Positions 9,629 to 34,000 of a stretch of 64,000 nt of DNA are shown here, piece after piece. Below the pieces are notes generated by a model. The model saw only the letters and a list, made by a program, of their open reading frames with translations, was not told the DNA's origin and did not search any database. Each line of letters opens with the position of its first letter. Position 1 is the stretch's first letter. This stretch comes from an uncultured Actinomycetes bacterium (GTDB lineage: Bacteria; Actinomycetota; Thermoleophilia; Gaiellales; Gaiellaceae). Made by a program: the position numbers and the translations under genes. The DNA lies in contig CAWCVG010000008.1 in NCBI GenBank assembly GCA_963798935.1, positions 4,752 to 68,751 of the forward strand, written 5' to 3'.

Positions 9629-9644
9629 GCTTGACCGGTTAAGC
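9629..9644. promoter_or_regulatory. operator-like imperfect palindrome GCTTGACCGGTTAAGC just upstream of the GH1 gene
   Basis: The 16-mer is palindromic apart from one symmetric mismatch pair and is centred on CCGG. Related sites occur at 18637-18652 and 19822-19837. It lies 9 nt before ATG 9653. Confidence 0.45.
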
Positions 9645-9652
9645 TATTGTCC

Positions 9653-13769: not shown

Positions 13770-13772
13770 CGG

Positions 13773-14759
13773 CTACGACCCCTGGAGCCCCGTGCGCGTC
13801 CGCGGGTCGACGATCACGTAGGCGATGTCGACCAGGAAGTTCGCGATCAGGACGCCGACGATGATGAACAGGAAGATGCCCTGGAGCAGGAAGTAGTCGC
13901 GGTTCGTGATCGCCGTGATGATCAGGGTGCCCACGCCGGGATAGCCGAACACGATCTCGGTGACCAGCGCTCCACCGACGATGACCCCCAGGGCAAGGGC
14001 CAGGCCCGACATCTGCGGAAGCACGGCGTTGCGGTAGGCGTACTTGCGGACCAGCCGATTCGGCGCGCCGAGCGCCTGGAGGTAGTTCGCGTAGTCGGCC
14101 TCGAGCTCGTAGATGATCAGGTTCCTCATCCCGATCGCCCACCCTCCGAACGAGACGAGGAAGAGTGTGAGGAACGGGAGGAACCAGTGGTGGAGGAAGC
14201 TGCGGGCGAACTCCCACGTCCACTCCGGTTGCAACGCGAAGTCGTAGGCGCCCGAGATCGGGAAGATCTGCCAGCGGAACGCGAGGAAGTAGGCGAGGAC
14301 GAGCGCCAGCCACATGTACGGCGTGGCCGTGAGGACGTAGGCGACCGGCAGCGCGGTGTTGTCGAGCACCTTCCGCCGCGCCGCGAGCGCGCCGACCCGG
14401 TTCCCGGCGATGTAGCTGAGGACGATCGCGGGGATCAGCAGCGCCAGCGTGTACGGGATGGCCGCCCGGATCAGGTCACTGACCGACGACCCGACGTACG
14501 CGATGCTCGGGCCGAGGTCGCCGTGCGCGAGCCCGAGCCAGAAGTTGAGGTACTGCCTCCAGAGCGGCTCGTCGAGGCCGAAGGACTCCGTGTAGTACCC
14601 GTGCATCTCCTGGGCCGCGGTCGGGTCCGCCTGGATGCGGGCGATCAGGCCAGAGATCGGGTCGCCGGGCATGAGCCGCGGGATCGCCCAGTCGATCGAC
14701 GCGGCGACGAAGAACGTCAGCAGGTAGATGGAGAGCTTGCGGGCGAGGTAACGGCTCAC
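13773..14759 (-). CDS. ABC transporter permease (OppB/DppB-like)
   Basis: Intact 328-aa ORF. The N-terminus MSRYLARKLSIYLLTFFVAASIDWAIPRLMPGDP is typical of OppB/DppB-family permeases, and six hydrophobic segments are present. Confidence 0.88.
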   Translation of the reverse strand: MSRYLARKLSIYLLTFFVAASIDWAIPRLMPGDPISGLIARIQADPTAAQEMHGYYTESFGLDEPLWRQYLNFWLGLAHGDLGPSIAYVGSSVSDLIRAAIPYTLALLIPAIVLSYIAGNRVGALAARRKVLDNTALPVAYVLTATPYMWLALVLAYFLAFRWQIFPISGAYDFALQPEWTWEFARSFLHHWFLPFLTLFLVSFGGWAIGMRNLIIYELEADYANYLQALGAPNRLVRKYAYRNAVLPQMSGLALALGVIVGGALVTEIVFGYPGVGTLIITAITNRDYFLLQGIFLFIIVGVLIANFLVDIAYVIVDPRTRTGLQGS

Positions 14760-14836
14760 GTCGAGAAGTGGCCGCCGCTCCTCCCGGAGGAGGAGCAGCG
14801 GCCCGACTCTAGGTTGCCGTCACTGGTCGTGAAGAC

Positions 14837-16571: not shown

Positions 16572-16642
16572 GATCCTCCTCCTCATCCCTCCTGCTTCCA
16601 TTCGTGGATTAGACGACGTCGACCGACTTTCAGCGGCCACTT

Positions 16643-18616
16643 TCAAGCTCGGGCATCACTCCCTTCGCTCGCCGCGGTCGCCGATACGCGGGCGGGGGGT
16701 GATCCCGCGTATCGGATCGACGCGGCGCCGAACGGCTCGAGCGTCAGCTCGCCCATGTCGGGATCGAGCTCGATGCCTGTCAGAACTGGTTGGGTCGAGA
16801 GCGTTTCCCCTGAGGTGTTCACGAAGAGCGCGGTCTCCGCGCCTCCGGTGCGAATCCGACCGACCAGGACGCGCGGATCGTCGACCCGCACCGGCCGCGA
16901 CACGCCCGACGCCTCGGCCAGCGCCGAGTAGATCCGATACGTGTCCTCCGGATTGGCGGCGGGCGTCTTCGCGGCCATGTGCTCGATCGGGTACGTGCAG
17001 AGCACGGTGCAGCCGGCTCCGGTGCGGTGGCGGAGCAGAGCCGGCCGGCCGTGCCCGTCGATCGCGACGACCTGCGCGCCCTGCGGCTCCAGGGGTAGGA
17101 AGGCGCGCGCGCTGGGCTCGCCGGCGACGCGGAAGGTGAGACGTGCGCCCTCCGCGATGTCGCCGAGGTCGTCGACGAACTGGAAGATGACCTCGTCGTC
17201 CTCGATCGGGTCGACGAGGCCGTAGCGCAGGCGGTGGCGGACGCCGAAGATCTCGTCCAGCCATGACAGCCAGGGGCCGCGCTGGGTCGTGGTGCTCCCG
17301 GCGAAGTACGAGGCGTACACCGTGGCGCCGGCCTCGGCGAGCTCGCGGAGCCGGTCGAGCCCGGGTGACGTCAACAGCTTCGCGCAGGGCACGAGGTAGA
17401 GCCGGGCGCTTCCGGGAAGGCCGTCGCGCTCTCGCACGAGCTCGACCGGGAGGTCGGCCTCGCGGGCGGCGACGTACGCCTGGAGCAGGTTGTCGCGCAG
17501 GTCCTGCCGGTACGCCGGATCGGTGAAGGGCAGGACCCGTTCGAAGTGCTCGGGGACGACGAGAGCGGCGTCGCCCGCCACGCGCTCCCACTCGCCACTC
17601 GAGAGGCCGCGCACGAGCTCGGCGAACTCGCTGATCTCGCGGAGCTGCGGCTTCGGACGACCGCGGACGTCCGTCAGGCCGAAGTGCAGCTCGAAGACGT
17701 GATGGCGATACGGGTCCTGGTGCCGGAGGTCGTCGAAGTCCGTGTTGTTCCACGCGAGCCACCCACGGGCTCCGGCGAGGAGCGACGTGTGGAGCACCTG
17801 GCGGTAGTAGGCGGCCGCATGCTCGTCGGCGGCGAAGTCCGAGCTGACGCCGAACTCCTCCAGCACGACCGGCTTGCCCAGGCTTCCCGCGAGCTCACAC
17901 GCGAGCGCGGGAGTGAGGACCTGCCGGACCGGGTCGTCCTCCATCGGGTACGAGTGCGGGCCGAAGAAGTCGACGAGCGGCGCGAGCGCCCGCAGCGAGT
18001 AGCCGTTGTCCCGACCGGACACCTCCACGCCCCATGCCCCGTCGCCGATCGAAACCGGCTGGGTCGCACCACCCGCGCGCAGGGCCTGGATGAGGATGCG
18101 AGCCCAGGCGGTGACCTCCGCGGCGCTCGCGCTCCCGCCGTAGAGCGGCATCTCGTTCGAGAGCAGCCAGGCGGCGACTGCGTGCCGGTGAAATCGGCGC
18201 GCGATCTCCTCGGCGAACCAGGCCTGCTGGCCGACCAGCCAGACGTCACGATAGAGGTCGCGCCCCTGTCGCCAGGGTGGATCCCAGTTCTCCCCCGACA
18301 TGTGCCCGACGATGAGCGTCGGGATCGTTTCGAGCCCGAGCTCCGAGTGCGCATCCAGGAAGTCACTGAACCGGTCGAGGACCTGATCGTCGAGGGTCTC
18401 CGGCTCCGGGACGAAGTCCGGCCAGTAGCAAAACGAGCGTGTGACGGTGCATCCGTGGTCGGAGAGAACCTCGAGCTCATCTCGCACAACCGCGGGGTCG
18501 TAGTGCATCCACATGCGCGGTCCGCCGGTGCGCGACCAGAAGTTGGCGCCGATCCATGGCGTCGAGATGTCCCGCGTGGACGGTGTAGCCGCCTGGGATC
18601 TCGTCGGGGGTCGCAT
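16643..18616 (-). CDS. clan GH-A glycoside hydrolase (GH5/cellulase-family-like catalytic domain plus C-terminal domain)
   Basis: Intact 657-aa ORF: IGANFWSRTGGPRMW..., candidate acid/base WLLSNEMP, candidate nucleophile PVVLEEFG. The C-terminal approximately 300 aa were not assigned. Family assignment is from motif memory only. Confidence 0.7.
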   Translation of the reverse strand: MRPPTRSQAATPSTRDISTPWIGANFWSRTGGPRMWMHYDPAVVRDELEVLSDHGCTVTRSFCYWPDFVPEPETLDDQVLDRFSDFLDAHSELGLETIPTLIVGHMSGENWDPPWRQGRDLYRDVWLVGQQAWFAEEIARRFHRHAVAAWLLSNEMPLYGGSASAAEVTAWARILIQALRAGGATQPVSIGDGAWGVEVSGRDNGYSLRALAPLVDFFGPHSYPMEDDPVRQVLTPALACELAGSLGKPVVLEEFGVSSDFAADEHAAAYYRQVLHTSLLAGARGWLAWNNTDFDDLRHQDPYRHHVFELHFGLTDVRGRPKPQLREISEFAELVRGLSSGEWERVAGDAALVVPEHFERVLPFTDPAYRQDLRDNLLQAYVAAREADLPVELVRERDGLPGSARLYLVPCAKLLTSPGLDRLRELAEAGATVYASYFAGSTTTQRGPWLSWLDEIFGVRHRLRYGLVDPIEDDEVIFQFVDDLGDIAEGARLTFRVAGEPSARAFLPLEPQGAQVVAIDGHGRPALLRHRTGAGCTVLCTYPIEHMAAKTPAANPEDTYRIYSALAEASGVSRPVRVDDPRVLVGRIRTGGAETALFVNTSGETLSTQPVLTGIELDPDMGELTLEPFGAASIRYAGSPPARVSATAASEGSDARA

Positions 18617-18636
18617 CCGGATGTGAAAAGTCCATC

Positions 18637-18652
18637 ACTTATCCGGTTCAGT
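18637..18652. promoter_or_regulatory. operator-like site ACTTATCCGGTTCAGT between the LacI-family gene stop and the GH5-like gene start
   Basis: It shares the core CTTnnCCGGTTnA with the sites at 9629-9644 and 19822-19837. It lies 21 nt upstream of ATG 18616 in minus-strand sense. Confidence 0.35.
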
Positions 18653-18684
18653 GTCAACCAGCTCGTAACAAAGCGACGTGCTGC

Positions 18685-19752
18685 TCAGGCCCGAGCTGCG
18701 CGTCCCCGGACGCCGCCAAGGCCGTTCGCCTGACGCGCAGGACCGGTGCTTCCGCGGGGCGTGAGCTCGCCCCGCTGCGTCTCCTTGTCGTCCGTCGTCC
18801 GGCCCTCGATGACCTCGAGGAGGTGACGGATGGCGGTGCCGCCGTAGGAGACGATGTCGCGGGTGATCGCAGTCAGCGGCGGATGCACCACCTGGCTGAT
18901 CAGCGAGTCGTCCCAGCCGACGATCGACACATCGTCCGGAACCGCGAAGCCCATCTGCAACGCGACTCCCAGGCCGGTGACGGCCAGGAGGTCGCTGTCG
19001 TAGATGATCACGCTCGGAGGCTGTGGCTCCGAGAGGAGCTTGCGCGTCGCGCGGGCGCCGCTCTCGGCGGAGTAGTCCGTCGGGATCACCTCGGCCTCGA
19101 GCCCAAGCTCCTCCGTGACTCTGAGAAATCCCGCCGTCCGCTGTGCCGTGTGGACGAACTCGTCGACGCCTGCGACGCGCGCGATTCGCGTGTGGCCCAG
19201 TGCCGCGACGTAGCGAACCGCCTCGATCACGACACCGGCTTCGTCGTGCCAAACCGCAGGTAGAGCGCCATTTTCCACCGGTCCGCCGATGACGACGGCG
19301 GGCAAGCCGAGGCGAACGAGCTCCCGAACGCGCGGGTCGTCTTTCCGTAGGTCGACCATGAGGACGCCGTCCACGCGGCGCTCGCCCCACCACCGCCGGT
19401 ACACCTCGATCTCGTCCTCCACGGACTGCACGAGCTGAATCGAAAGGGCGATCGACCTTGCCGAAAGCTCGGACTCGACGCCGGCGATGAACTCCATGAA
19501 GAACGGCTCGAGCGCCAGCGTCTTCGCGGGCCGGGCGAGCACGAGGCCGCAGGCGTCGGCGCGCTCGACTGAGAGCGCACGCGCGGCACGGTTGGGATAC
19601 CAGCCGAGCTCACGGGCGATCTCGAGGATTCGCTCCCTGGTGCCGTCGGAGACTCCCGGGCGCCCGTTCAGCGCATACGAGACGGCGCCCTTCGAGACTC
19701 CGGCTCGCTCCGCGATGTCACTGATCGTCACTCGGCGAGCGCGCTCAGCCAA
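18685..19752 (-). CDS. LacI-family transcriptional regulator
   Basis: Intact 355-aa ORF with the N-terminal HTH VTISDIAERAGVSKGAVSYALNGRPGVSDGTRERILEIARELGWYPNRAARAL and a periplasmic-binding-protein-like effector domain. SD AAGGAG precedes TTG 19752. Confidence 0.92.
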   Translation of the reverse strand: MAERARRVTISDIAERAGVSKGAVSYALNGRPGVSDGTRERILEIARELGWYPNRAARALSVERADACGLVLARPAKTLALEPFFMEFIAGVESELSARSIALSIQLVQSVEDEIEVYRRWWGERRVDGVLMVDLRKDDPRVRELVRLGLPAVVIGGPVENGALPAVWHDEAGVVIEAVRYVAALGHTRIARVAGVDEFVHTAQRTAGFLRVTEELGLEAEVIPTDYSAESGARATRKLLSEPQPPSVIIYDSDLLAVTGLGVALQMGFAVPDDVSIVGWDDSLISQVVHPPLTAITRDIVSYGGTAIRHLLEVIEGRTTDDKETQRGELTPRGSTGPARQANGLGGVRGRAARA

Positions 19753-19821
19753 AGGGGGCTCCTTTCCAGGTGGCCGACGGTTGCCAGACCGGCGCCGCGC
19801 CGGCCGCGTCGAATCATAATG

Positions 19822-19837
19822 ACTTGACCGGTTCAGC
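19822..19837. promoter_or_regulatory. operator-like site ACTTGACCGGTTCAGC in the LacI / TPR-gene divergent intergenic region
   Basis: It matches the site at 9629-9644 at 14 of 16 positions. It lies 70 nt upstream of the LacI-family start on the minus strand. Confidence 0.4.
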
Positions 19838-19988
19838 GAGTGAACTGAAACGGGTTCCGCGGGCGAGCGCGCGTGACCCGTTAGTGTCTCGCCCGCGGTC
19901 GTCGCACCGAGCGGAGCGAAGGAACAGCCGTCGGCGCGGCGAAGGCGGCAGTTCCGGAGGAGGATCGCATCCCTAGGCGAGCTCTACG

Positions 19989-20813
19989 GTGACGGAAGGT
20001 CATACACGCTCTCGGCGACGCCTCCTGGCGCTCGGCGGGATGTGGCTGCTGCTCGGCGGCCTGCTGACGGCGCTTGGCCTCGTCGTCGTCGTCGTGGCGG
20101 TTTCCGCCCTCCTGTTGGTCGCGACCCTCGCGGTGATCGGGATTGGCCAGCTTCGCCGGCTCGAGCTGCGGAAGGGCGTGCGCACAGCGACCCAACGGAC
20201 CGCGTCGACGCTCCAGGTGGCGCGCGAGCGGGCGCCGAGACCGCGGGCTCCGCAGCTCCACACTCGCCAGCACGCCCGGAAGCTGCGTGCGCGGGCGAGG
20301 ACGGCTGCCGCTGCGACGCCACGCCGGACCGAAGATCTCGCGACCCGGGCGTTCGAGGGCTACGTCAAGACCATGTACCGGCTGAAGCTCCTGAGGCTCC
20401 ACTCGATCGACCCGAGCGAACGGGCGCAGCAGCTCAACGCGGTCGGCGCGCAGCTCCGGCGGGACGGCGAGCCCGAGCAGGCGGCCGAACGCCATCGGGC
20501 CGCCCTCGCGATCGTCCGCGACCTGGGAGACCCCCACGCCGAGGCGCTGACACTCAACAATCTCGGCCTCGCGCTCGCCCACGGCGGCGCCGAAGATGCC
20601 GCCCTTCAGCATCTCGAGGAAGCGCGGGACGTCCTGCGCGATCTGGGCGACGCGGAGTACGAGGCGCGCGTCATCGCCAACCTCGGCCTCGTCCACCGAA
20701 GGCAGGGACACGACGAGGAGGCCGCCAACCTGCTCCACGAGGCCCTCGGCAAGCTTCCGCCCGAGTCGCCGGCGTACCGTCAGGTCGAGGAAGAGCTGCT
20801 CCGCGCCAGCTGA
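19989..20813 (+). CDS. membrane-anchored TPR-repeat protein (hypothetical)
   Basis: Intact 274-aa ORF. It has two N-terminal hydrophobic helices (LLALGGMWLLLGGLLTALGLVVVVVAVSALLLVATLAVIGI), a basic linker, and C-terminal TPR-like repeats (EALTLNNLGLALAHGG..., EARVIANLGLVHRRQG...). Confidence 0.6.
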   Translation: MTEGHTRSRRRLLALGGMWLLLGGLLTALGLVVVVVAVSALLLVATLAVIGIGQLRRLELRKGVRTATQRTASTLQVARERAPRPRAPQLHTRQHARKLRARARTAAAATPRRTEDLATRAFEGYVKTMYRLKLLRLHSIDPSERAQQLNAVGAQLRRDGEPEQAAERHRAALAIVRDLGDPHAEALTLNNLGLALAHGGAEDAALQHLEEARDVLRDLGDAEYEARVIANLGLVHRRQGHDEEAANLLHEALGKLPPESPAYRQVEEELLRAS

Positions 20814-20822
20814 TCAGAACAC

Positions 20823-20852
20823 AACGCGCCGATGGCGGCCCACCGGCGCGTT
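20823..20852 (+). terminator. stem-loop after the TPR gene (9-bp perfect stem AACGCGCCG/CGGCGCGTT, 12-nt loop), with no U-tract
   Basis: The inverted repeat spans 20823-20831 and 20844-20852, 10 nt after the TGA at 20811-20813. It lies in a convergent intergenic region. Confidence 0.4.
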
Positions 20853-20978
20853 GAACTGGGAGGCTTCACTCCCGGACCGCCCGTTGACGTTGCGGGCGGG
20901 CCTGATGACGCGATTTTCCCGCCGCTCGATTAAAGAACGATCAAAGGAACATGAGAGTTTTCGTCGAGCGGACGAGCG

Positions 20979-21962
20979 CTACGCGCCCGGGGTGTAGCCG
21001 GACCTGTACTCGACGTTCTCCTTGCGGGCGATCTCGACGAGGTACTTCGAGGCCGCCTCGCTCTTCCTCCTCTGCAGCAGCTCTTGACGGATCTGCTCCT
21101 TGACGTCGGCGTAGGCAAACGTCTTCCCCCGCCGTACCGGCCCAAGCGCCTCGATGACGTGCCAGCCGAATGTCGTCCGGACGGGCCCGACGATCCTGCC
21201 CCTCGGAGCCGAGAAGACGACGTTCTCGAACGCGGCGCTCGTGTCGCCCTTCGTGATCTCGAGCCGGCCGCCGGAGGTCCCGGCCCGTGGATCCCGCGAA
21301 TACCGACGGGCGAGCTGGGCGAAGCTCGCGCCCGACCGAAGCTGGTTGACGAGCCGCTGAGCGAGCGCCCGCTGCTCCGTGCGTACGAGAATCTGGCGAA
21401 TCTCGCGCTTGGCCGGCGTCGCGTAGCGCCGCTTGTTCTTGTCGTAGTACTTACGCACCTCGGCATCGGTCACCTTGACGTCGGTGCCGACGTCCTTGAA
21501 CAGCTCCTGCTGGACGAGGGAGGTTTCGAGGTCGGCGCGGGCCTGCTCCTCGCTGACGCCCTGCTTCGCGAGGGCCTCGCGGTAGCGCTTCTCGCTTCCC
21601 CCGTAGTACTGCTCCACCAGCCGTTTTTGCCTCTGCTCGAGCTCCTTGTCCGAAATCTCGATGTCCTGATCCTCGGCTGCCGCGACCAGCTGCGCGCGGC
21701 TGACGAGGTGCTTGACGAGCTGGTCGCGGAACTGCCGGTACTGAGGCGTTCCCTCCTTCGGGAACGGGCGGCCGCTCTCCTTGGCGGTCGCGCGGGCCTG
21801 CGCGAGCAGCCGGTCGAGCTCCTCCTTCGCGACCGTCTCGTCGCCGACAACCGCTACGGCGTCCTTGGGCACGCCGTCGGAGCCGCCGCAGCCGATCGCC
21901 CCGAGAAGGGCGGTCGCTGCGAGACAGGGAATGAAGATGTGCCGCACGCTCTTGCTCACCAC
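20979..21962 (-). CDS. PrsA/SurA-like peptidyl-prolyl isomerase lipoprotein (parvulin domain)
   Basis: Intact 327-aa ORF. It has a lipobox LLGAIGC, a SurA-N-like helical region, and a parvulin region ...REIRQILVRTEQRALAQRLVNQLRSGASFAQLARRYSRDPRAGTSGGRLEITKGDTSAAFENVVFSAP...TTFGWHVIE. Confidence 0.85.
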   Translation of the reverse strand: MVSKSVRHIFIPCLAATALLGAIGCGGSDGVPKDAVAVVGDETVAKEELDRLLAQARATAKESGRPFPKEGTPQYRQFRDQLVKHLVSRAQLVAAAEDQDIEISDKELEQRQKRLVEQYYGGSEKRYREALAKQGVSEEQARADLETSLVQQELFKDVGTDVKVTDAEVRKYYDKNKRRYATPAKREIRQILVRTEQRALAQRLVNQLRSGASFAQLARRYSRDPRAGTSGGRLEITKGDTSAAFENVVFSAPRGRIVGPVRTTFGWHVIEALGPVRRGKTFAYADVKEQIRQELLQRRKSEAASKYLVEIARKENVEYRSGYTPGA

Positions 21963-22083
21963 TCGCTCAAAGTATTTGCGGGGACGGCAAAGCCACGATA
22001 AGCCGAAGGTGAGCGTTTTCTTATGAGCCGACCGCCGTGCTCGGCAGGTTTCTGAGCCTGAAACGCGAAAGGCGCAGGCGGCC

Positions 22084-25000
22084 TCAGCCGGCGCTGACGA
22101 ATTGGACGACGAGCTGCGGCGGACTCTGGCCCTTCTCTCTGCTGTGGAACTGCTGCTCTGCGTCCGCGCTCTCGACGGCGTCGCGGATCAGGAAGCCGTG
22201 GTTGGCGCCGTCGCCGACCGTCGCCCGGACATGCGAGGTGACGTCCCATTCGCGGTAGCCGGCGCCGGAGGCGGTCGTCGCCGCCGTGCCAATCGTCGTG
22301 GGCTGGTTGCTCCAGGAGACGCTGTTCTCGGCCCACGCGGCCCCGATCCGCAGCGCTTGCAGCGTGCGGGCCGGCTTCACCGAAGCCGCGTACAGCCTGA
22401 GCACGGCCCTCTCGATCGCGCAGCCCTGCGGCACGACGGGCAGGGGGAAGCGGACGAGTGCGCGGAAGTTGTCACGCGGCCCCTTGGACTGAACCTTCAA
22501 GATCGAGTCGGTCCCCTTGTTCGACGAGGGGCTGTTCTCGTCGATCCACGCATCCGCGGCCGCGGCCAGCGTCGCCGGCGTGGTGCACGTGGGCGTCGGC
22601 GGCGCGATCGTCCAGGTGTGGGTAGCTGGGGAGGCGTCGAGGTTGCCCACCGCGTCCCTGGCGCGGACGCGGAACTGGTGCGAGCCCGTACCGAGTCCCG
22701 TGTACTGGCGTGGAGTCGCGCAGGCCGCGAACGCAGCGCCGTCGAGGGAGCACTCGAACGTCGAGCCGGACTCGCTCGAGGAGAAGCCGAACGACGCGTT
22801 CGTGGAGGTCGTCGTCGCCGGCGGCGCCGGGCCGATCGTCGTGTCGGGCGCGACCGTGTCGATCGTCCAGCCGGCCTGCGCCGGTGTGCCGTCGACGTTC
22901 CCCGCGGCGTCCCTCGCCCTGACCTGGAACTGGTGTGCGCCGTGCGCCAGGCCCGTGTACTGCCGTGGGGATGAGCAGGCGACGAAGGCGGCACCGTCCA
23001 GGGAGCACTCGAAGGTCGAGCCGGATTCGCCGGCGGTGAAGCTGAAGCTCGCGCTCGTGCTCGCCGTGGTGGCAGGCGGGGCGGGGCCCGAGATGGTCGT
23101 CTCCGGCGCGAGCGTGTCGATCCTCCAGCTCACGGTTGCAGGCGTTGCGTCGACGTTGCCGGCCGCGTCGGTCGCGCGGACGCGGAACTGGTGGGTTCCG
23201 TCCGTCAGGCCGGCGTACGTTTGCGGCGAGGAGCAACTCGCGAATGCGCCGCCGTCGAGCGAGCACTGGAACGTCGAGCCGGACTCGCTCGCCGAGAAGC
23301 CGAAGCTCGCGCTCGTGCTCGCCGTGAGCGCAGGCGGGCCGGAGTCGATCGTCGTTTCGGGCGCGAGTGGGTCGATCGTCCAGGTGTAAGCGGCCGGCGT
23401 CTCGTCGACGTTTCCTGCAGCGTCCGTCGCCTGGACGCGGAACTGGTGGCTCCCGCCCGCGAGGCCGGCGTACTCACGCGGGGACTGACAGACGGCGAAG
23501 GCGGCTCCGTCGAGCGAGCACGCGAATGTCGACCCGGTCTTGCTCGACGAGAACGAGAAGCTCGCGCTCGTGCTCGAGGTCAGGGCGGGCGGGACGGAGT
23601 CGATCGTCGTCTCGGGTGCGGTCGTGTCGGGAGGCGGCTCGATCGTCCACGCGTGAGTCGCCGGCGACCCGTCCGTGTTCCCCGCCGGATCGGTGGCGCG
23701 CACACGGAACACGTGCGGGCCGACGGCCAGCGCGGTGTGCTCGCGCGGCGACGTGCAGGCAGTGAACGCACCGTCGTCGAGCGAGCACTCGAATGTCGAG
23801 CCGGGCTCGCTCGAGAAGTGGAAGCTCGCGCTCGTGGCGGTGGTGGTCGCCGCCGGCCCGGAGTCGATCGTCGTCTCGGGCGAAGTCCGGTCGATCGTCC
23901 ATGTATGCGAGGCGGGACTGGCGTCGGCGTTGTCGGCGAGATCGACGGCGCGCACCTCGAACGCGTGCGCGCCCTCGGGCAGGCCGAGGTAGAGCTTCGG
24001 GCTCGAGCAGTCAGCCCACTCGCCGGCGTCGAGGCGGCACTCGAACCGGAGCTGTGCGTCTCCGGTCCGGTCGTCGCTCCCGACGAACGCAAATGTCGCC
24101 GTGTCGTTGTTGTTCGGGTCGGCGGGGCCCTCCGTGATCGAGGTGTCGGGCGGGGCCGTGTCGATCACCCAGAGACGGCTTGCCGGCGTCGGATCGCTGT
24201 TTCCGGCAGCGTCGGTCGCGCGAACGCGGAACTCGTGCGCGCCCGCGACCAGAGGGCCGTACTCGCGCGGTGAGGTGCAGGGCGCGAAGGCCGCCGCGTC
24301 GAGTGAGCACTCGAGCCGCGACCCGGGCTCGCTCCCCGAGAACGCGAAGCTCGCGCTCTGGCTGCTGGTCGGGTCGGCCGGACCGGAGTCGATCGCCGTC
24401 TCTGGCGGCGTAACGTCGATCGTCCACGCGTACGACGCGGGGCTCGGGTCGCTGTTTCCGGCCGCGTCGGTTGCGCGAACCTGGAAGGTGTGGGTGCCGG
24501 GCTCGAGGTCCGCGTAATCCGCGGGCGAGCCGCAGGCCGTGGGCGTCCCGCCGTCGAGGGAGCACGCGAGCCCCGAGCCGGACTCGTCGGACGAGAACTC
24601 GAAGATCGCCGCTGTGCTGTTGGTCGGATCCGACGGCCCCGTCGAGATCGTCGTCTGCGGCGCGGTCTGATCGACCGTCCAGGCGTGGCCTGCGGGCGTC
24701 GCATCGGTGTTCCCGACCGCATCGACGGCGCGCACTGCAAACGTGTGGCGCCCTTCGCCGAGCCCGTCGTAGCTCGAGGGGCTCGTACACGCCGCGAACG
24801 GTGCTCCGTCCAGCGAGCAGACGAACGTCGCCTGCTCGCCGGCGGAGAATGCAAACGTCGCGGATGAGCTGTTGGTCGGGTCCGCGGGGCGGGCGTCGAT
24901 GGAGGTCTCCGGCGGGGTCAGGTCGACCGTCCACACCGCACTCGCAGGCGTCTCGTCGACGTTGCCCGCCCGATCGATCGCGCGCACGTCGAATGTGTGC

Positions 25001-28000
25001 GGCCCCTCGCCGAGATCCAGGTAGCTCTGCGGGCTCGCGCACGCGGCGAACGGTTCGCCGTCCAGCCTGCACTCGAAGCTCGACTCTTCCACGGCCGAGA
25101 AGGCGAAGCTTGCGGAGGTCGAGCTCGTGCTGTCCGGGGGCGCGTCGTCGATCGACGTCTCGGGTGCCGTCAGGTCGATCGTCCAGCGGTGAACGGCCGG
25201 TTCCGGGTCGACGTTTCCGGCCCGATCCACCGCGCGCACCGCCACGCTGTGGGAACCCTCGGCAAGCCCCTCGAAGCGCGCCGGGCTCGAACAGGACCCG
25301 AAGGGACCATCGTCGAGCGCGCAGGCGAAGGCGCTCTCCTCGTCGGCCGAGAAGACGAACTCGGCTGTGGAGCTGTTCGACGGATCCGCCGGACCCGAGT
25401 CGATCGTCGTCTCGGGCGGCGTCAGGTCGACCGTCCACTCCACGCGCGCGGCCACCGGCTCCAGGTTCCCGGCCGTGTCGGTCGCCCGCACCTCGAAGCT
25501 GTGCCGCTCCTTCCGCCAGCCCCTCGTAGCTGGCCGGGCTCGAGCACGCGGCGAACACAGCGCTGTCGAGTCGGCACTCGAAGCTCGCCGCCTCGTCCGC
25601 CGAGAAGACGAAGCTCGCCGATGCGCTCGCCGTCGGGTCGGCGGGCTGCTCGTCGATCGAGCTCTCCGGCGCCGTCAGATCGACCGTCCAGACCGCACGG
25701 GCCGGCGTCTCGTCGACGTTTCCAGCCGGGTCGATCGCCCGTACGTCGAACGTATGCGGACCCTCCCCCAGCGTCTCGTAGCCCTGCGGGCTGGAGCAGG
25801 CGGTGAACGCTGCGCCGTCCAACCGGCACTCGAAGCGGGCCTCTTCTCCGGCCGAGAACTCGAAGGTCGCGGACGTCGCGTTCGTGGGATCGTCGGGGCG
25901 GGCGCCGATCGACGTGTCGGGGGCGGTCAGATCGATCGTCCAGCCGTACACCGCCGGCTGCGCGGTCGGCGTTCCCGGCCCGGTCGATCGCCCGCACCTC
26001 GACCACGTGGCCACCCTCCGCAAGACTCTCGTAGGTCTGCGCCGCCGAGCAGGGGACGAATGGCGCGGCGTCGAGCGAGCACTCGAACGTCGCCTCCTCG
26101 TCCGCCGAGAAGGCGAACTCCGCGGATGAGCTGTTCGACGGGTCCGCCGGAGCCGAGTCGATCGCGATCACGGGTGGAGTCACGTCGATCGTCCAAAGCG
26201 TGAGCGCCGGGGCTCGTCTCCACGTTCCCAGCCGAGTCGATCCCGCGCACCTCGAAGCTATGCCGCCCCTCGTCGAGTAGGTCGTAGGCCGCCGGGCTCT
26301 CGCAGGCGCTGAACTCACCATCGTCGAGCCGGCACTCGAAGCTCGCCGCCTCATCCGCCGAGAAGGCGAAGCTCGCCGCCGTCTTGTTCGTCGGGTCGGC
26401 CGGGCCCGAGTCGATCGCCGTCGCCGGCTCGGTCAGGTCGACCGTCCACGAGTACCGGGCCGGGACCGGGTCGACGTTGCCGGCGGCGTCGATCGCGCGC
26501 ACGTCGAAGACGTGCCCGCCCTCGGCCAGATCCGGTGAGGCTCTCCGGGCTCGCGCACAGCGAGAAGGCTGCATCGTCGAGCCGGCACTCGAAGCTCACG
26601 CCGTCGGCGGCGGAGAACGCGAGGGTCGCCGAGGTGGCGTTGGTCGGGTCGGCCGGTCCCGAGTCGACTGCCGTCTCGGGCGGAGTGAGGTCGATCGTCC
26701 AGCTGTAGGCAGCCGGCTCCGGGTCGACGTTCCCGGCACGGTCGATCGCCCGCACCTCGACGACGTGGCCACCCTCCCCCAGGCTCTCGTAGCTCTGCGC
26801 CGACGAGCAGACGCCGAAGGGCGCGCCGTCGAGCGAGCACTCGAACGTCGCCTCCTCGTCCGCCGAGAACGCGAAGCTGGCCGACGAGCTGTTGGAGGGA
26901 TCCGACGGGCCCGAGTCGACCACGTCGTCCGGCGCCGTCAGGTCGACCGTCCACGCTCGGCTTACGGCCGGGCCGACGTTGCCGGCCCGATCGATCGCCC
27001 GCACCTCGAGGGCGTGGCGGCCGGCGGCGAGTAGGTCGTACCTGATCGGGCTGCCACAGTCGCCCCAGCCGGACGCCGGGTCGTCGAGCCGGCACTGGAA
27101 GCGAAGCTGCGAGAGCTCGTCCAAATTGTCGGAGCCGGCGAAGCTGAGCTCGGCCGACGTCTCGTTCGTCGGATCGACCGGTCCGGAGAGGATCGCGGCC
27201 GCCGGTGCCGTCAAGTCGACCGTCCATTCGTAGGTCGCCGGCGTCGGATCGACGGCGCGGACCTTTCTCGTCGCCCGCACTTCGAGCTCGTGCCCGCCTT
27301 CTGCCAGCCCGTCGAGCGCCGTGCGGCGACGCGCACGCCGCGAACGCCGCACCGTCGAGCGAGCACTCGAAGGCGCGTCGGCGCGGTCGGAGGAGAACAT
27401 GAAGGTCGCCGCGGTCGCGTTCGTCGGCGAGGCCGGCCCGGCGTCGATCGTCGTCTCTGGCGTCGAGTCGTCGAAGACGAGCACGAGCTGCGGGGGATCG
27501 TCCGTCACCTTGTCCCGGCTGTTGATCGTCTGCTCGTCGCCGACGCCGTTCTCGTCCGCGTCGCGGATCAGGAAGCCGTGGTTGGCCGACGTGTACATGT
27601 CCAGGACCTGGTCGACGACAGTCCACTCGAGCGGCCCCTGGGCCGACGGGGATCCCAGCTGCGGGGCCGATCACGGCTGGCTGGTTGCTCCAGGTCACGC
27701 CGGCTTCGCTCCACGCAGAGCCGACCTGCAGCACCTCGAGCGTGCGGCCATCCTTCGCCGCTGTCGCCTCCACGCGAAGGACGGCCGAGGCGATCGCTCG
27801 TGCAGCCGGCGGGCAGGGTCGGGAGCGGGAAGCGGACGAGCGCCCGCGCGTTGGTGCCGATCTGCGACTTCACCTTCAGCGTCGAGTCGTTGCCGAAGTT
27901 GTTCGAGGGGCTGCTCTCGCTGACCCAGCTGTCGCGGTCGGCGGAGAACGCCTGCGGAATCTTCGGGCACGCGCCCGGCGCGGGCGGTGCGTCGGGGTCG

Positions 28001-30852
28001 TCGAAGACGAGGACGAGCTCGGGCGGGCGATCGGCGCCCTTCTCGCGGCTGTGGAACGACTGCGCGCCGGTCTCGTTCTCCGCGCGGTCCCGGATCAGGA
28101 AGCCGTGGTCGCCCGTGCACGTACATGTCGCGCGTCTGCGCGAGAACGTCCCACTCGAGCACGCCGAGGCCCGACTGGGTCGTGGCGGCCGGTCCGGCCG
28201 TCGCGGGCTGGGTCGCCCAGGTGACGCCGAGCTCGGTCCAGTCGGACGAGCACGCGCACGCGCCTCGAGCGTGCGGCCCTCCGTCGCCGCGGAGGCGTGA
28301 AGGCGCAGCGTCGCGGCCACGAGCTTGCAACCCGGCGGCACGGGCGGGAGGGTGAAGTGGACGAGCGCGCGCTCGTTCGTACCGGCCTGCGACTTGACCT
28401 TGAGGATCGAGTCGCTGCCGAAGTTGCGCGTTCGGCGCGCCCTGCGACACCCAGCTGTCGAAGTCGGCGGGCACCGGCCGCTCGGTCAGCCCGGCGCATT
28501 GCTGCTGCCGCCGCCGCCCGGGCGTCAGCTCGGACTCGTAGGCGCCGGCGTCGAAGCGCGTCGAACTGCGGCCGGTCGACGCCGCGCTGATCGACCGGCG
28601 GGCACGGGTCGAGCTCGGTGCAGACGGCCCTCTCCTGGGCCGGACTTCCGGCAAGCAGGGCGTGCGTCTGGGTCGGACCGCCGTTGTCGGCGAGCGGGCC
28701 GAGGCGGGGATCGGTGCCCGGCTGGTCGCTCAGCTCGCTGAGCTGGCAGGTGTTGGCGTTCTCCACGTTGCCGCCGAGCGAGGTGATCGTGCCGGCGCAG
28801 TTGCCGCCGGCCGGGTTGTTCGCGACGATCGTGTTGGCGAGGAACACAGTCCCGTCGCCGACGAGATCGCCGCCGCCGTTGTTGATGCCGCCGCCGGACG
28901 CGGCGAGGTTGTTCGTGACGGTGCTGTTCCGCATCGTCAGCCGCGAGGAGATGAGCACCCCGCCGCCGAACTGGCTCGCCCGGTTGCCCGAGACCGTCGT
29001 GTTCTCGAGCGTCGCCTCACCGTCGCCGTCGCGTGAGGACGCCGCCGCCGCTCTCGGCCGAGTTGCCCGACAGCGTGCTGCGGGTGACCTCGAGCGGCGC
29101 GTCGCCCACGTGGTGGATCGCGCCGCCGACAGCGGCCGTGTTGCCGCTGATCGACGTCGTCGTGATCGCGAGCGGGCCGTCGCCGCGGCTGTCGATGCCG
29201 CCCCCGTCGCCGCTTCGACTTGTTGTCGCGGATGCGCGAGTCCTCGACCGCGGCCGACTCGCCGACTGCCATCGCCTTGTCGCCGTGCGTACGAGATGCC
29301 GCCGCCGCCTTCCAGCGCAGAGTCGGAGACGTTGCCGACGACGTCGATATTGAGCATGCGGACGGCGCCGGACTGGACGAGGATGCCGCCGCCCTCCTCC
29401 TCCGCGTGGTTCGCGGAGAAGCGCGTGCCGGTGATCGTCACCTGGCCGCCGCCCTCGTTGCTGAACCCGCCGCCGCCTCGAGCCTTGTTCTCCGTGAACG
29501 AGCCGCCGGTGATCACGACCTCGCCGCCGGAGTTGGAGTGCATGCCGCCGCCTTCGCCGCTGGCAAGCGAGGCGGTGACGAGCGCGGGGTTCTTCGTGAA
29601 CGTCGAGTTCTCGACCGTGACGAGGCCGGTCCCCTCGTTGGCGAACCCGCCGCCGGTGACGGCGGAGTTCTCGCTGAACGTGCTGTTCAGGATCGTGACG
29701 CCGCCCTGGTTGCCGTTGAGCATGGCGCCGCCGAGGCCCTCGGCGCTGTTCTTCGAGAAGGTGCTGTCGAGCACGGCGATGGTGCCGCCGGTGGCCGCGA
29801 TGGCGCCGCCGTCCTTCGCCGCGTTCTCCGAGAACGTGCTGTCGGTGAGGTGACGCTGCCGGTCCCGTTGAAGATCGCGCCGCCGTCGGAGCTCGAAACG
29901 TTCTTGGAGAAGCTCGACCCGTCGACGGCCAGGATGCCACCGCCGTCGTTCGAGATGCCGGCGCCGTTGCGCCCGCCGCCGGCGTGATTGTCCGAGATCT
30001 GCGAGTCGGTGACGGTGATCGACCCGATGGCGTCGAGCTCGGCGTTGTTGGCGATCGCGCCGGCTCCCCTGAGGGTCTCGTCGAGCCCGACCACGCTCGC
30101 CGAGTTCCCCGAGATGCTGCTGTTCGCGACGCGTCAGCGTGCCGTCGCGGTTGTTGTTGATCGCGCTCCCGCTCTCGCCGGCGTAGTTCCCCGAGACCGT
30201 CGACTCGGAGACGGCCACCGCCCCGCCGATGTGGTTGTCGATCGCGCCACCGGTCTTGCCGGCGACGTTGCCCGTGAGCACGGCGGCGGTGACGATGACG
30301 GCCGCCGTGCTGTTGTTCATGATCGCTCCGCCGTACTCCGCGGCGTAGCCGTCGCTGACGGTGAGGTCGGAGAAGCTCACATCGCCGCCGTCGACGAGGA
30401 CTTCGAAGATGCGGTCGAGCCCCCGCACGTCCGGGGGAGCGCCGGCCGGCGGCGATGCCGCCGTCGACGAACGTCGAGCCGGCTCCGGCCCCGCGGATCG
30501 CGAGGCTATCGGTGATGTCGAGGTCGCCGGTCGTGATGTCGTTCTGGTTCAGGGGCGGAATCGCGAGCGCGTACGTGCCGGCCGGGACCACGATCACGTC
30601 GGCCCCGGGAATCGCGTTCGCCTCCTGGATCGCGGCCCGCAGCGTGCACACCCCGGCGGTCGTCCGGCACAGCCCGTCGCCGACGCCGGCGTCGAGCGCG
30701 TCGGCCGTGCTGTTTACCTGGAAGTTGAGGCCGGCGGCGCCTGCCACCCCCGCCGCCTTGAGGCCGAGGAGGGCGGCGAGGGCGAGGATGCAGGCGACCG
30801 CCACGAGCCTGGGACCACGTGAAGCGATCCACCGCAGGAGGCGTGTCCGCAT
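22084..30852 (-). CDS. giant modular secreted protein, gene B (about 2,900 codons), interrupted by at least about 17 single-nt frame breaks upstream of 25491 as assembled
   Basis: ATG 30852 opens MRTRLLRWIASRGPRLVAVACILALAALLGLKAAGVAGAAG (signal peptide). Homologous protein sequence can be followed through ORFs 29017..30852, 28095..30428, 29687..30094, 28937..29272, 27695..28654, 27568..28341, 26433..27773, 26351..27598, 25927..26574, 25422..26354, 24011..26023 and the intact 22084..25491. The gene ends ...PPQLVVQFVSAG*. No stop-plus-restart with a signal peptide occurs in between. Confidence 0.8.
22087..22587 (-). other. gene B C-terminal DNRLRE-like module
   Basis: Sequence is CTTPATLAAAADAWIDENSPSSNKGTDSILKVQSKGPRDNFRALVRFPLPVVPQGCAIERAVLRLYAAS...AAWAENSVSWSNQPTT...GYREWDVTSHV...NHGFLIRDAVESADAEQQFHSREKGQSPPQLVVQFVSAG*. 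Confidence 0.7.
22588..27466 (-). repeat. gene B: 19 tandem copies of an approximately 84-aa (252-270 nt) two-cysteine Ig-like repeat
   Basis: Consensus is T(V/I)D.T.P.T.I.SGP.DPTN..SA.F.FS..E....F.C.LDG..F..C.SP..Y..L..G.H.F.VRA.D.AGN.D.TPA...W. I counted 8 repeats in 25492-27466 and 11 in the intact ORF 22084..25491. The plus-strand core CACTCGAA recurs at 22751, 23006, 23264, 23519 and 23786 (some copies with one mismatch), giving a period of 255-267 nt. Confidence 0.85.
27467..28500 (-). other. gene B: two tandem internal DNRLRE-like modules
   Basis: Module 1 (about 27997-28500): DFDSWVSQGAPNA/NFGSDSILKVKSQAGTNERALVHFTLPPVPPGCKLVAATLRLHA...GVTWATQPAT...GDHGFLIRDRAENETGAQSFHSREKGADRPPELVLVFDD. 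Module 2 (about 27467-27969): CPKIPQAFSADRDSWVSESSPSNNFGNDSTLKVKSQIGTNARALVRFPLPTLPAGC...GVTWSNQPAV...NHGFLIRDADENGVGDEQTINSRDKVTDDPPQLVLVFDD. Both contain frame breaks. Confidence 0.65.
28560..28850 (-). other. gene B choice-of-anchor-Q-like region
   Basis: Sequence is ANTIVANNPAGGNCAGTITSLGGNVENANTCQLSELSDQPGTDPRLGPLADNGGPTQTHALLAGSPAQE...DQRGVDRPQ. Confidence 0.6.
28851..30447 (-). repeat. gene B Pmp-like beta-helix repeats (alternating FSxN and GGAI/GGG motifs)
   Basis: Example stretch: STFSENAAKDGGAIAATGGTIAVLDSTFSKNSAEGLGGAMLNGNQGGVTILNSTFSENSAVTGGGFANEGTGLVTVENSTFTKN...GGGMHSNSGGEVVITGGSFTENKARGGGGFSNEGGGQVTITGTRFSANHAEEEGGGILV. Several frame breaks occur inside. Confidence 0.7.
30448..30852 (-). 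other. gene B signal peptide plus CSLREA-type N-terminal domain
   Basis: Sequence is FQVNSTADALDAGVGDGLCRTTAGVCTLRAAIQEANAIPGADVIVVPAGTYALAIPPLNQNDITTGDLDITDSLAIRGAGAGSTFVDGG. The C(T/S)LR(A/E)AIxEAN motif and layout match the CSLREA N-terminal family as remembered. Confidence 0.7.
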
Positions 30853-30932
30853 CGCACATTCGAGGATAGGACCGGTTGATGAGAGGCCGGCACAAACGTG
30901 ATGAGAGGCCCGTCAGGTCCCGATGAGAAGGC
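30853..30932 (-). promoter_or_regulatory. candidate activator-dependent promoter of gene B: three direct repeats at exact 22-bp spacing plus a -10-like TATCCT 10 nt before the ATG
   Basis: On the plus strand, TGATGAGAGGCC lies at 30877-30888, TGATGAGAGGCC at 30899-30910 and CGATGAGAAGGC at 30921-30932. The identical GATGAGA core lies at 30878, 30900 and 30922. The minus-strand TATCCT is the complement of 30863-30868. No good -35 hexamer is present. Confidence 0.45.
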
Positions 30933-31035
30933 GTTTACGTATCCGGGCCGATACCGCTCGGCGGCTCGTACACGGCGACGTCCTTGCCCGCCGCTCGTGC
31001 GCCGGCGGTGGGCGGTGGCCGGCGTCGGCCGGTGC

Positions 31036-34000
31036 TCAGTCGTACTGGATGACGAGCTGCGGCGGGTTGTCCGTGAGCTTCTCGCGGCTGTGGAAGGCCT
31101 GATCCATGCCGCCGGCGTTCTCGGTCGCGTCGCGGATCAGGAAGCCGTGGTTGAAGCCGCCCGGCGCGTACATCGCCTGGGTCTGGCTCGTGATCGTCCA
31201 CTCGCGGTAGCCGAAGCCCGACGTGGTCGTCACGCCCGTGCCCGACGTGGCGGGCTGGTTGCCCCAGGTCACGAGGTTCTCCGTCCACGCCGCTGCGAGC
31301 GGGATGGCCCGCAGCGTGCGCCCGTCCTTGTACGACGAGGCGTACAGGCGGAGCTTCGCGCTGACGACGTCGCAGCCGGCCGGGAGCGTCGGGAGGGCGA
31401 AGCGGACCAGCGCCCTCGCGTTGCTGCTCGACTTCGAATCGACCTTCAGGACCGAGTCCCCGCCGTTGTTCTTCGCCGCGTCGCTCTGCAGCACCCAGCT
31501 GTCCGCCACCGAGGTCACGGTCACCGAGCCGGCGGTGCAGTTCGAGATGTTGGCCGTCCAGCTGCGTGTCGCGGACGACTGGTCGGGGTTGCCGGCCGCG
31601 TCGATCGCGCGGACGCGGAACGTGTGCGGGCCTGCCGTGAGGCCGCTCAGGTGGCGCGGCGACGAGCACGCGGCCCATGGGGCGTTGTCGAGTGAGCACT
31701 CGAATGTCGCCGCCGGGTCGTCCGCGGAGAACGTGAACGTCTCCGTGCTGCTCGTCGTCGTCCCAGACGGGCCGTTGTTGATCGTCGTCTCCGGCGGGAC
31801 GAGGTCGACCGTCCAGGTGTACGTCGCCGGGCTCGGATCCGCCCTGTCGGCGAAGTCGATCGCCCGCACCTGGAACGTGTGCGAGCCGTGCGCGAGCGTC
31901 GGTGTAGCTCTTCGGGCTCGCGCACGCAGCGAACACGCCCAGGTCGAGCTTGCACTCGTAGCGGAGCTGCGACGCCGGCGTCGAGTCGTCGGTGCCGGTG
32001 AACGTGAAGCTCGGCGAGTGCGTCGGGCTCGGGTTCGTTCGGCTTGGTCAGGATGCCCGTGTCCGGCGGTGCGAGGTCCGGAGCCAGCTCGACCGTCCAC
32101 GAGCGAGCCGCCGGCGTGGCGTCGACGTTGCCGGCCGCGTCCTTCGCCCGGGCCTTCAGCGTGTGTGCGCCCACGCTCAGGCTCGAGTACGTCTTCGGCG
32201 AGGCGCAGGGGCTGAACGCTGCGTCGTCGAGCGAGCACTCGAAGGTCGCGGCGGCCTCGTTCGAGGAGAACGTGAACGCCGCGGTGGTGCTGAGCACGGT
32301 TCCGGACGGGCCGCTCTCGATTGTCGTCGCCGGAGGCCTCGTGTCCGGCGCGGCGAAGCGGATCACGAGCTCCGGCCGGTTCATCGGGGCCTCGCGGCTG
32401 GCGATCTGCTGCTCCGAGCCGCCGTTGTTGTCACCAGCGTCCCTGATCAGGAAGCCGTTGTTCACGCTCGCGTACATCGCGAGCACCTGAGCAGACACGT
32501 TCCACTCGCGCCAGCCCGGCGTCGCGCCCGCACCGAGGCCCGACATCGTCGTCACGGGCTCACCGGCCGTCAGCGGCTGGTTGTCCCACGTGACGCCACC
32601 CTCGCCCCAGGTGCCCGCGACGCGCCACGCCTCGAGAGCACGGTCGGTGATCAGCGAGTTCAGGTGCAGGCGCATCGTCGCCGACTCGACCGCGCAGCCT
32701 GCCGGCAGCGCCGGGAGGTTGAAGCGGACGAGAGAGCGGGCGTTGTTCGCCGGGCCCTTGGAGATGACCTTGATGGTCGAGTCGCCACCCTTGTTGGTGA
32801 GCGGCGCGGCCTGGTCGATCCAGGCGTCCGCGCCGGCGCCGACGGTCTGCTGCGTTCCGCAGCTCATGGCCGAGCCCGAAGCGGCGGCGTAGCTGTAGAC
32901 CATCTGCGGCTGGTTGTCCGACTTCTCCCGGCTGTGGAGCTGCTGCTCGGAGCCGCCGTTGCCCTCGGCCGCGTCGCGGATCAGGAAGCCGTTGCTCGCG
33001 CCGGCCGCCACCTGCGTCGTGACGTCCCAGGAGCGGTGACCCTGCCCGGAGTCGGTGGTGGCCGCCGTGCCGCTCGTCGCCGGCTGGTTGCTCCAGTTGA
33101 CGCCGCTCTCCGTCCAGGTCGCGGCCAGCGGCAGAGCCTGGATCGTCCGGCCGGCGGAGTGCCCGCCCGCGTAGAGGCGCAGCGTCGCCGACTGCAGGAC
33201 GCAGCCGGAGGGCACCGTCGGCGCCGGGAAGCGGACGAGCGCGCGGCTGTCCTCGCCGGACTTCGACATCACCTTCAGCACCGAGTCGCCGCCGTGGTTG
33301 TTCGACGGGCTCTTCAGCTCGATCCAGGCGTCCGCGTCGGCGCCGACCGTCTGCACCGAGGTGCAGTCCGGCGCCACGACCGACCACGTCCACGTGGCGG
33401 GCGTCGGGTCGGCGTTCCCCGCCTGGTCGACCGCGCGGACGTCGAACGAGTACGGAGCGCCCTGAGCCAGTCCTGTGTACGTCCTCGGGCTGGTGCAGGC
33501 CGTGAACTCCGTGTCGCCGTCGAATCGGCACTCGTACCGGAGGTCGGCTACCGCATCGAGGTTGTCGCTGCCGGTGAACGTGAGCGTCGCCGACGAGAGC
33601 GTGCTCGGATTCGACGGCTTCCCGGTGATGGACGTCTCCGGCGGTGTCCCGTCGGTGATCGTCCAGCTGTAGCTGTCCGCCGACGGATCGACGTTGCCCG
33701 CGCCGTCGATCGCCCGCACCTGGAACGTGTGCGGCCCGGACGCGAGCGCCGTGTAGGTCATCGGCGACTCGCAGTCGGCGAACGGCGCGGCGTCGAGCGA
33801 GCACTCGAACGCCGAGTCGATCTCGTTCGCGTTGAACGTGAACGTCGCGCTCGTGGCCGTCGTCGAGCTCTGCGGCGTCGTCGAGGATCGTCGTGTTCGG
33901 CGGCACCGCGACCGTCCACGTGTACTCGACCGGCGTCTCGTCAGCGAGGCCGTACGGCTGGAGCTTCGCGGCGACGGTGAGCGTGTGCTCGCCGTCCTCG

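Follow-up and report, generated by a model that had tools for sequence, protein, structure and literature searches.

Tandem giant repeat-protein genes in an uncultured Gaiellaceae bacterium: the shorter gene probably encodes a secreted fibre

Introduction

Close relatives of the gene described here are deposited in public databases as 'CSLREA domain-containing protein' or 'DNRLRE domain-containing protein' (Gaiellaceae bacterium), and no experimental study of any member of this family was found in the literature searched. DNRLRE domains are related to family CBM96 of the carbohydrate-binding modules (CBMs), which was defined on an alginate-binding module that is approximately 30% identical to them. 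Basic residues within a shallow groove of this module bind acidic polysaccharide, and CBM96 modules are typically appended to lyases (PMC9971899). We analyzed a 64,000-nucleotide (nt) stretch of contig CAWCVG010000008.1 (hereafter the window), in which two giant genes of this kind, A and B, lie in tandem. Gene B, the shorter and downstream member of the pair, is our subject.

The window has a G+C content of about 70% and belongs to a soil metagenome-assembled genome (MAG) of an uncultured member of the Gaiellaceae (Actinomycetota), here called G000, which comprises 3.13 Mb in 36 contigs and is 79% complete. We consider it likely that the product of gene B is an elongated, secreted fibre, on the surface or extracellular and probably sugar-binding, that B is an old paralogue of A, and that the many frame breaks in its assembled sequence are assembly errors.

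Results

Domain architecture of gene B

Gene B and its predicted parts are as follows.

22084-30852, minus strand: gene B, about 2,918 amino acids (aa) after frame correction, delimited by a frame plot of G+C at third codon positions (GC3), codon-usage Viterbi decoding, three-frame translation and domain models
30730-30852, minus strand: signal-peptide-like N-terminus of about 41 aa, recognized by eye in the translation from a basic n-region followed by a hydrophobic stretch and, ahead of the mature start, small residues
30616-30723, minus strand: CSLREA N-terminal domain (TIGR04214), residues 44-79, with the motif C-T-L-R-A-A, an instance of the family pattern C-[ST]-L-R-[EA]-A
28713-30615, minus strand: right-handed beta-helix of Pmp-type (GGAI / FxxN) repeats, with POMP_repeat and Chlam_PMP matches in four segments
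28557-28712, minus strand: choice-of-anchor Q domain (NF041518), which caps the beta-helix
27996-28504, minus strand: DNRLRE/CBM96 module 1, with frame changes at about 28429, 28263 and 28120
27463-27975, minus strand: DNRLRE/CBM96 module 2, with frame changes at about 27801 and 27668
22597-27463, minus strand: 19 tandem immunoglobulin (Ig)-like repeats of about 84 aa each, matched by Big_13 and OmpL47-type barrel models
22087-22596, minus strand: terminal DNRLRE/CBM96 module (NF033679, PF24517), the end of the protein

A preliminary description of the window, made from its letters alone, had given B these outer limits and a miniature version of the domain plan of A. Both claims are borne out: the start codon (ATG, 30852-30850) and the stop codon (TGA, 22086-22084) are where it put them, and every domain was recovered with curated models in the order signal-like N-terminus, CSLREA, Pmp-repeat beta-helix, choice-of-anchor Q, two DNRLRE/CBM96 modules, Ig-like repeats and terminal DNRLRE/CBM96. 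A profile hidden Markov model (HMM) built from the repeats of B itself finds exactly the 19 full-length Ig-like units that had been counted. It was also correct that B lacks the NosD-like modules and insert domains of A, since no NosD/Beta_helix-type module or insert domain was found in B.

Most of these assignments exceed the curated cut-offs of their models. The CSLREA_Nterm model is matched over its full length (positions 1-27) at 30.8 bits (cut-off 25), and the 58-position choice_anch_Q model at 64.7 bits (cut-off 25; 66.2 bits in a second scan). Only two choice_anch_Q matches occur in the whole of G000, one in A and one in B. The match to Chlam_PMP (PF02415) is 32.2 bits. The Ig-like array scores 209.7 bits with NF047446 (cut-off 40) and 147.2 bits with PF19077 (cut-off 27), and each repeat carries an F-x-C-x-L-D ... 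C motif with two conserved cysteines. The terminal DNRLRE module covers model positions 1-163 of 164, at 103.7 bits with NF033679 (cut-off 34) and 101.7 bits with PF24517 (cut-off 26). Pieces of the two internal modules, split by frame changes, score 25.1 and 43.9 bits; once corrected, the modules are full length. An iterative search that used the terminal module as query placed the DNRLRE domains of B at 28504-27996, 27975-27463 and 22596-22089.

Predicted fold and role of the product

A structure model was computed for the N-terminal 1,143 aa of the orthologue in G007, a genome of the same genus, from an alignment of 30 homologues (mean predicted local distance difference test score 82). It shows approximately 24 three-strand beta-helix coils at residues 40-730, followed by a disordered linker, a beta-sandwich at residues 789-960 and an Ig-like domain. 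Before the beta-helix, the residues that match the signal-peptide-like N-terminus are modeled as an isolated helix (H18-31) of low confidence. In Foldseek searches the sandwich matched a chondroitin-sulfate-binding CBM (8WAB) with template-modeling (TM) scores of 0.73-0.75 and an alginate-binding CBM96 (7VBO) with a score of 0.60. The head resembled Rhombotarget A, pectate lyase Pel9A, PL6 lyases and phage tailspikes only weakly. When PDB sequences were searched with a profile, the same set of entries emerged.

From this domain content, a Sec-type signal would open the protein and direct its secretion. A head of about 700 residues would follow, folded as a right-handed beta-helix that is opened by the CSLREA domain and capped by the choice-of-anchor Q domain. 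Next would come two beta-sandwich modules of the CBM96 (DNRLRE) type, a kind that binds acidic polysaccharides elsewhere, and then a stalk in which the 19 Ig-like repeats, each with its two conserved cysteines, would serve as a spacer. A terminal CBM96-type module would end the fibre. Judging from domain content only, the most likely role of such a fibre is multivalent binding of polysaccharide, whether of the matrix, the cell wall or a plant or microbial glycan.

We regard it as unlikely that the beta-helix head is instead a polysaccharide lyase or hydrolase, which would make B a tethered depolymerase. The fold matches of the head do include pectate lyase Pel9A, PL6 alginate lyases and capsule-degrading tailspikes, and the habitual attachment of CBM96 to lyases noted above points the same way. 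However, the head matches are weak (target-normalised TM scores of 0.24-0.44, root-mean-square deviations of 9-26 Å), and NCBIfam and Pfam scans of B matched no lyase or hydrolase family model. Moreover, the best match by sequence and fold together is the non-enzymatic Rhombotarget A, and the nearly invariant columns of the head are scaffold glycines and asparagines with no obvious catalytic set.

Some results weigh against a secreted sugar-binding fibre. No secretion-system signal was found in B, including a type I secretion signal or RTX repeats, and no anchor or catalytic motif was identified in it, so both location and ligand are inferred. A motif search found no LPXTG-like motif in B, and the NCBIfam and Pfam scans matched no sorting-domain model and, in any segment of B that was scanned, no autotransporter domain. 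By their name, members of the choice-of-anchor Q family generally imply a C-terminal sorting signal; the HMM itself requires none.

Relationship between genes A and B

The second gene of the pair lies directly upstream.

30853-31035, minus strand: intergenic gap of 183 nt that separates A from B
31036-63173, minus strand: gene A, the 32-kb upstream paralogue, for which about 147 frame changes are needed in the assembly

The GC3 frame plot shows a minus-strand coding signal that runs unbroken from about 63.2 kb to 22.1 kb and shifts frame repeatedly. As had been proposed, A and B are co-oriented and 183 nt apart, with the stop codon of A at 31038-31036 and the ATG of B beginning at 30852. Gene A encodes, in order, CSLREA, a Pmp beta-helix, choice-of-anchor Q, one DNRLRE module, three NosD-like modules, at least 80 Ig-like repeats, two tandem DNRLRE modules and a terminal DNRLRE module.

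The two genes are alike in domain types, in the family of their Ig repeats and in the terminal DNRLRE module. They differ in that A is 3.7 times longer and alone has the three NosD-like beta-helix modules, the unassigned insert domains and the array of at least 80 Ig repeats. Four DNRLRE modules in A stand against three in B (iterative search with the terminal module of B). They are also differently placed: A has a single module after the head and its tandem pair near the C-terminus, whereas the tandem pair of B follows the head. Two of the insert domains of A lie inside its Ig array on the minus strand: one at 50578-51222, which has no Pfam or NCBIfam match, and one at approximately 42264-42604, which was seen in the Viterbi translation.

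The preliminary description held A and B to be tandem paralogues, a claim that would fail if their N-terminal regions were not homologous or if B were an assembly copy of part of A. The heads, taken from CSLREA through choice-of-anchor Q, align end to end in blastp with 31% identity over 866 columns (E 1e-76), and with 38% identity on the columns aligned by MAFFT. At the nucleotide level the best of the long blastn matches between A and B are only 65-70% identical, and a near-identical segment is absent. An origin of B as an assembly copy or chimera of part of A has next to no probability. The shared domain types and repeat family would fit such an origin, but the low identity of the heads and of the long nucleotide matches argues strongly against it, as does the presence of orthologous B genes at the same place in three other genomes (G007, G012 and SKG bin7).

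The preliminary description had suggested a search of related genomes for the same gene pair. In a search of 40 relatives, orthologues of B were found within the genus in G007 (76% identity over a probe segment) and in G012 (94%). The order in G007 is response regulator, A (about 7,100 aa) and B (about 2,840 aa, with one frame break in 8.5 kb), with a gap of about 203 nt between A and B; its regulator is 72% identical to the one upstream of A in the window. A 6.6-kb contig of G012 is colinear with window positions 35443-28788 at 87.6% nucleotide identity and holds the last 1,466 codons of A and the first 707 codons of B, each in a single open frame, separated by 178 nt. The same A-B arrangement occurs in 'MAG: Actinomycetota bacterium SKG bin7', with open frames of 2,468 and 1,652 aa. 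As judged from these gene orders, conservation within the genus extends to the A-B pair and the response regulator upstream of it.

The identity between heads is 67% for B and the B gene of G007, 47% for A and the A gene of G007, and 31% for A and B. Individual Ig repeats of B are nearest to repeats of the G007 B gene, often in positional register, or to other repeats of B, and never to those of A; a recent origin of these repeats from A was rejected on this ground. Because both the head identities and the nearest neighbours of the repeats favour the G007 counterparts, the duplication, as read from these alignments, is old and predates the split of these species. Tandem paralogy is upheld, but the idea that B is a recent partial copy of A is not.

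Module content, by the same comparison of gene models, is still drifting among orthologues of B. The B gene of G007 has one head-proximal DNRLRE module, where the B gene of the window has two, and 20 Ig repeats; the repeat HMM finds 43 units in the A gene of G007. The conserved pair offers a natural contrast of long versus short fibre for the study of cell-surface architecture in Gaiellaceae.

Other giant genes of the family were seen in genomes of the same genus, in G007 (contig C1 near 387,000; 10,672 aa) and in G001 (contig C55 near 20,000; 7,129 aa). Both have intact frames, so genes of this size can assemble unbroken.

Frame breaks in the assembled genes

Codon-usage Viterbi decoding was trained on 491 long open reading frames (ORFs) taken from elsewhere in the genome. 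It assigns 30852-22084 to a single gene whose frame changes 16 times, at sites from 30438 to 25516. This method missed two mutually compensating breaks within Ig repeat 1, near 27375/27320, which three-frame translation revealed. In total B contains at least 18 single-base frame changes, mostly 1-nt insertions and all within its first 5.3 kb, and no frame change interrupts the last 1,142 codons (25512-22087). The claim that B is one gene thus stands, while its assembled sequence is not a single ORF. The corrected sequence has no in-frame stop and a GC3 near 0.9. Gene B is probably a real gene that is intact aside from assembly breaks.

The alignment of the G012 contig with the window contains 22 gap events, of which the 1- and 2-nt events coincide with the Viterbi frame changes. 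Fourteen are insertions in the window, mostly outside homopolymers, and 9 of 13 create CpG. We also compared soil short-read contigs from four studies, mostly 90-95% alike to the window. Over 28908-29181, 29173-29543 and 29514-30248 the gaps in these contigs number 1, 2 and 2, matching the count of frame changes that each interval contains, and over 22180-22763 and 24413-24774, in the unbroken 3′ part, the contigs show none. The same soil runs omit a single base at 31897, 38839, 39942, 40085 and 40237, in or near frame-change sites of A.

The remainder of the assembly shows the same kind of break. Outside A and B, approximately 735 frameshift-like junctions occur genome-wide, or 0.24 per kb; +1 shifts outnumber -1 shifts there by 517 to 218, and the bias is the same inside A and B, at 66 to 29. 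Because the indels are absent from short-read relatives and the whole assembly has the same +1 bias, the frame breaks very probably arose as consensus errors in a metagenome assembly that was error-prone and probably built from long reads.

Ordinary genes of the window are frame-broken too, all on the minus strand. An Opp/Dpp-type ABC ATPase gene (11897-12861) has two breaks and a solute-binding protein gene (14849-16652) has one, near 16240. In the response regulator gene a G is inserted near 63578, within 63534-63620 of the window; its removal yields an end in ...GVGYRLSG, with a TAG near 63534, that matches the G007 orthologue.

Elsewhere in the genome, junctions are dense in two other bins, at 190-200 kb (18 junctions) and 30-40 kb (14 junctions) of contig C29, the latter holding another DNRLRE gene. 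On the minus strand of contig C36, at approximately 9,000-23,000, a third locus with 23 copies of the same Ig-like repeat of about 84 aa is split into short ORFs; no choice-of-anchor Q or DNRLRE match was found at this locus.

It is improbable that A and B are true pseudogenes in this strain, with real indels at sites that are intact in related strains. The breaks are indeed concentrated in Ig-repeat genes, the third being the one on contig C36, and the contigs that lack them belong to related strains and do not represent the source sample. On the other hand, nearly all indels are 1 nt long and are biased toward insertion (2.4:1) as they are genome-wide, including in regulators and transporters, and mutational decay in bacteria is usually deletion-biased. 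Corrected B is free of nonsense codons and shows no erosion of GC3, and conservation of the protein extends to either side of each break. In addition, the indels are absent from the soil short-read contigs and from two short-read MAG contigs, and the A gene of G007, another few-contig MAG of the genus, has mostly +1 breaks as well.

Consensus error leaves certain observations unaccounted for, and these count against it. The density of frame changes in A and B is about 2-4.6 per kb, reaching 35-40 per 10-kb bin, which is more than 10 times the genome average. The breaks lie mostly outside homopolymers and show no preferred position within the repeat unit. The public soil runs used for comparison hold at most 8% of sampled words.

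Simple technical causes of the excess were considered. Homopolymer errors were rejected, as the inserted bases lie mostly outside runs; a fixed error-prone position in the repeat was rejected, as the breaks in A are spread across the whole 84-residue unit; and failed polishing of multi-mapping repeats is unlikely, as repeats and paralogues share only 65-70% DNA identity. Our guess is that mixed strain alleles in hypervariable surface genes lie behind the excess. We see only a very small chance that the indel excess in the three Ig-repeat genes (A, B and that of C36) is real population heterogeneity, a phase-variation-like or hypermutation switching of giant fibres. If true, such indels would act as an on-off switch for the giant surface fibres of this uncultured soil actinobacterium, a reading that the evidence disfavours.

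With consensus error as the preferred explanation, gene calls for such giant genes are unreliable in this assembly. The true products would have about 2,900 and 10,700 aa and would not be dozens of fragments, and gene calls from the whole G000 assembly need frame-aware handling.

A repeat array upstream of gene B

Two sequence features precede the start codon of B.

30878-30930, minus strand: three direct repeats with a TCTCAT core, whose first bases in gene orientation are 30928, 30906 and 30884, in an exact 22-nt phase
30863-30868, minus strand: -10-like hexamer TATCCT, which ends 10 nt before the ATG and is assigned on position and conservation only

No Shine-Dalgarno-like run is present between TATCCT and the ATG. 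Short-leader or leaderless starts are common in Actinomycetota, and the layout upstream of B fits this pattern. In both G012 and G007 the region upstream of B has three cores at 22-nt phase, the hexamer TACCGT, 10 nt and then the ATG, while the flanks diverge. The region upstream of B is the only place in the 3.13-Mb genome where a pair of TCTCAT cores occurs 22 nt apart.

The preliminary description took the array for a promoter of B's own. The array is real and conserved in three genomes; its service as a promoter is plausible, with no match to the sigma-70 consensus. From these sequence patterns, it is plausible that B has a transcription start of its own, independent and regulated. Certain observations speak against this: the more distant SKG bin7 orthologue has no such array upstream, no consensus sigma-70 promoter occurs in 20700-31300, and the hairpin after A in the window is weak (z -1.67).

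The last two of these are equally points in favour of a possible, if doubtful, alternative, in which the promoter of A drives both genes as a single operon and the array is another regulatory site, such as an attenuator or internal operator. The co-orientation of the genes and the short gap, 183 nt here and 178 and about 203 nt in the relatives, fit this alternative as well. Against it stands the conservation of array, -10-like hexamer, 10-nt spacing and ATG, without a ribosome-binding run, while the flanks diverge. Strong GC-rich hairpins just after the stop of A in G012 and G007 (z about -3), followed in G007 by a U-rich tail, also argue against a single operon. Across 20700-31300, terminator-like sites are no commoner than in shuffled sequence.

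A similar TCTCAT array was not found upstream of A in G000 or G007, and for this reason nothing points to binding of the array of B by the neighbouring response regulator. The TCTCAT array at 22-nt phase is a concrete, testable candidate operator or promoter in a lineage without genetics.

Neighbouring genes

A regulatory gene borders the pair on the far side of A.

63534-64000, continuing past the window, minus strand: OmpR-type response regulator gene upstream of A, with a 1-nt insertion near 63578

A histidine kinase gene sits upstream of this regulator, and the co-oriented gene order is histidine kinase, OmpR-type response regulator, A, B and PpiC/SurA-like isomerase. The last of these, a peptidyl-prolyl isomerase gene, is at 20979-21962 on the minus strand, 122 nt downstream of B. 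It was rejected as a conserved partner: it was not found in 60 kb around the A-B locus of G007 and is for this reason probably not a dedicated partner of B. Of the co-oriented neighbourhood, G007 shares only regulator, A and B.

Comparison with known systems

Gene B is an ordinary member of a named, uncharacterised family whose close relatives are already in public databases. Since annotation pipelines have already named this family, the general biological weight of the locus is small. The CSLREA/choice-of-anchor Q/DNRLRE proteins of Gaiellaceae and other Actinomycetota MAGs (e.g. P0012 and P0006) have the same head, DNRLRE/CBM96 modules and Big_13 repeats. Such public relatives are 51-76% identical to the G007 orthologue, and P0012 corresponds to the piece of this gene present in G012. 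B differs from them in nothing essential; it is longer than most of the catalogued fragments and is frame-broken in the assembly.

Three other described systems resemble parts of the protein. Its three DNRLRE modules match PF24517/NF033679, and the modeled module of the G007 orthologue superposes on the CBM96 module TM6-N4 of the Dp0100 alginate lyase (7VBO) and on the chondroitin-sulfate-binding module 8WAB. Sequence identity to these structures is only about 20%, and in the proposed protein the modules of B would sit on a non-enzymatic fibre and not on a lyase. The chlamydial Pmp autotransporters share the Pmp-type beta-helix repeats (PF02415, TIGR01376). However, no autotransporter beta-barrel was found in B, its C-terminus is a CBM96 module and its host is actinobacterial, so the logic of its secretion and anchoring must differ.

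The giant Ig-repeat adhesins, among them Ca2+-stabilised tandem-repeat adhesins and the Leptospira OmpL47-type multi-barrel surface proteins, use a long array of beta-sandwiches as an extender, as B appears to do. B matches NF033510 and NF047446 weakly to moderately, and the equivalog model Lepto_OmpL47 scores 88.7 bits, far below its cut-off of 250. B differs in that neither a type I secretion signal nor RTX repeats were found in it and in that each of its repeats carries two conserved cysteines.

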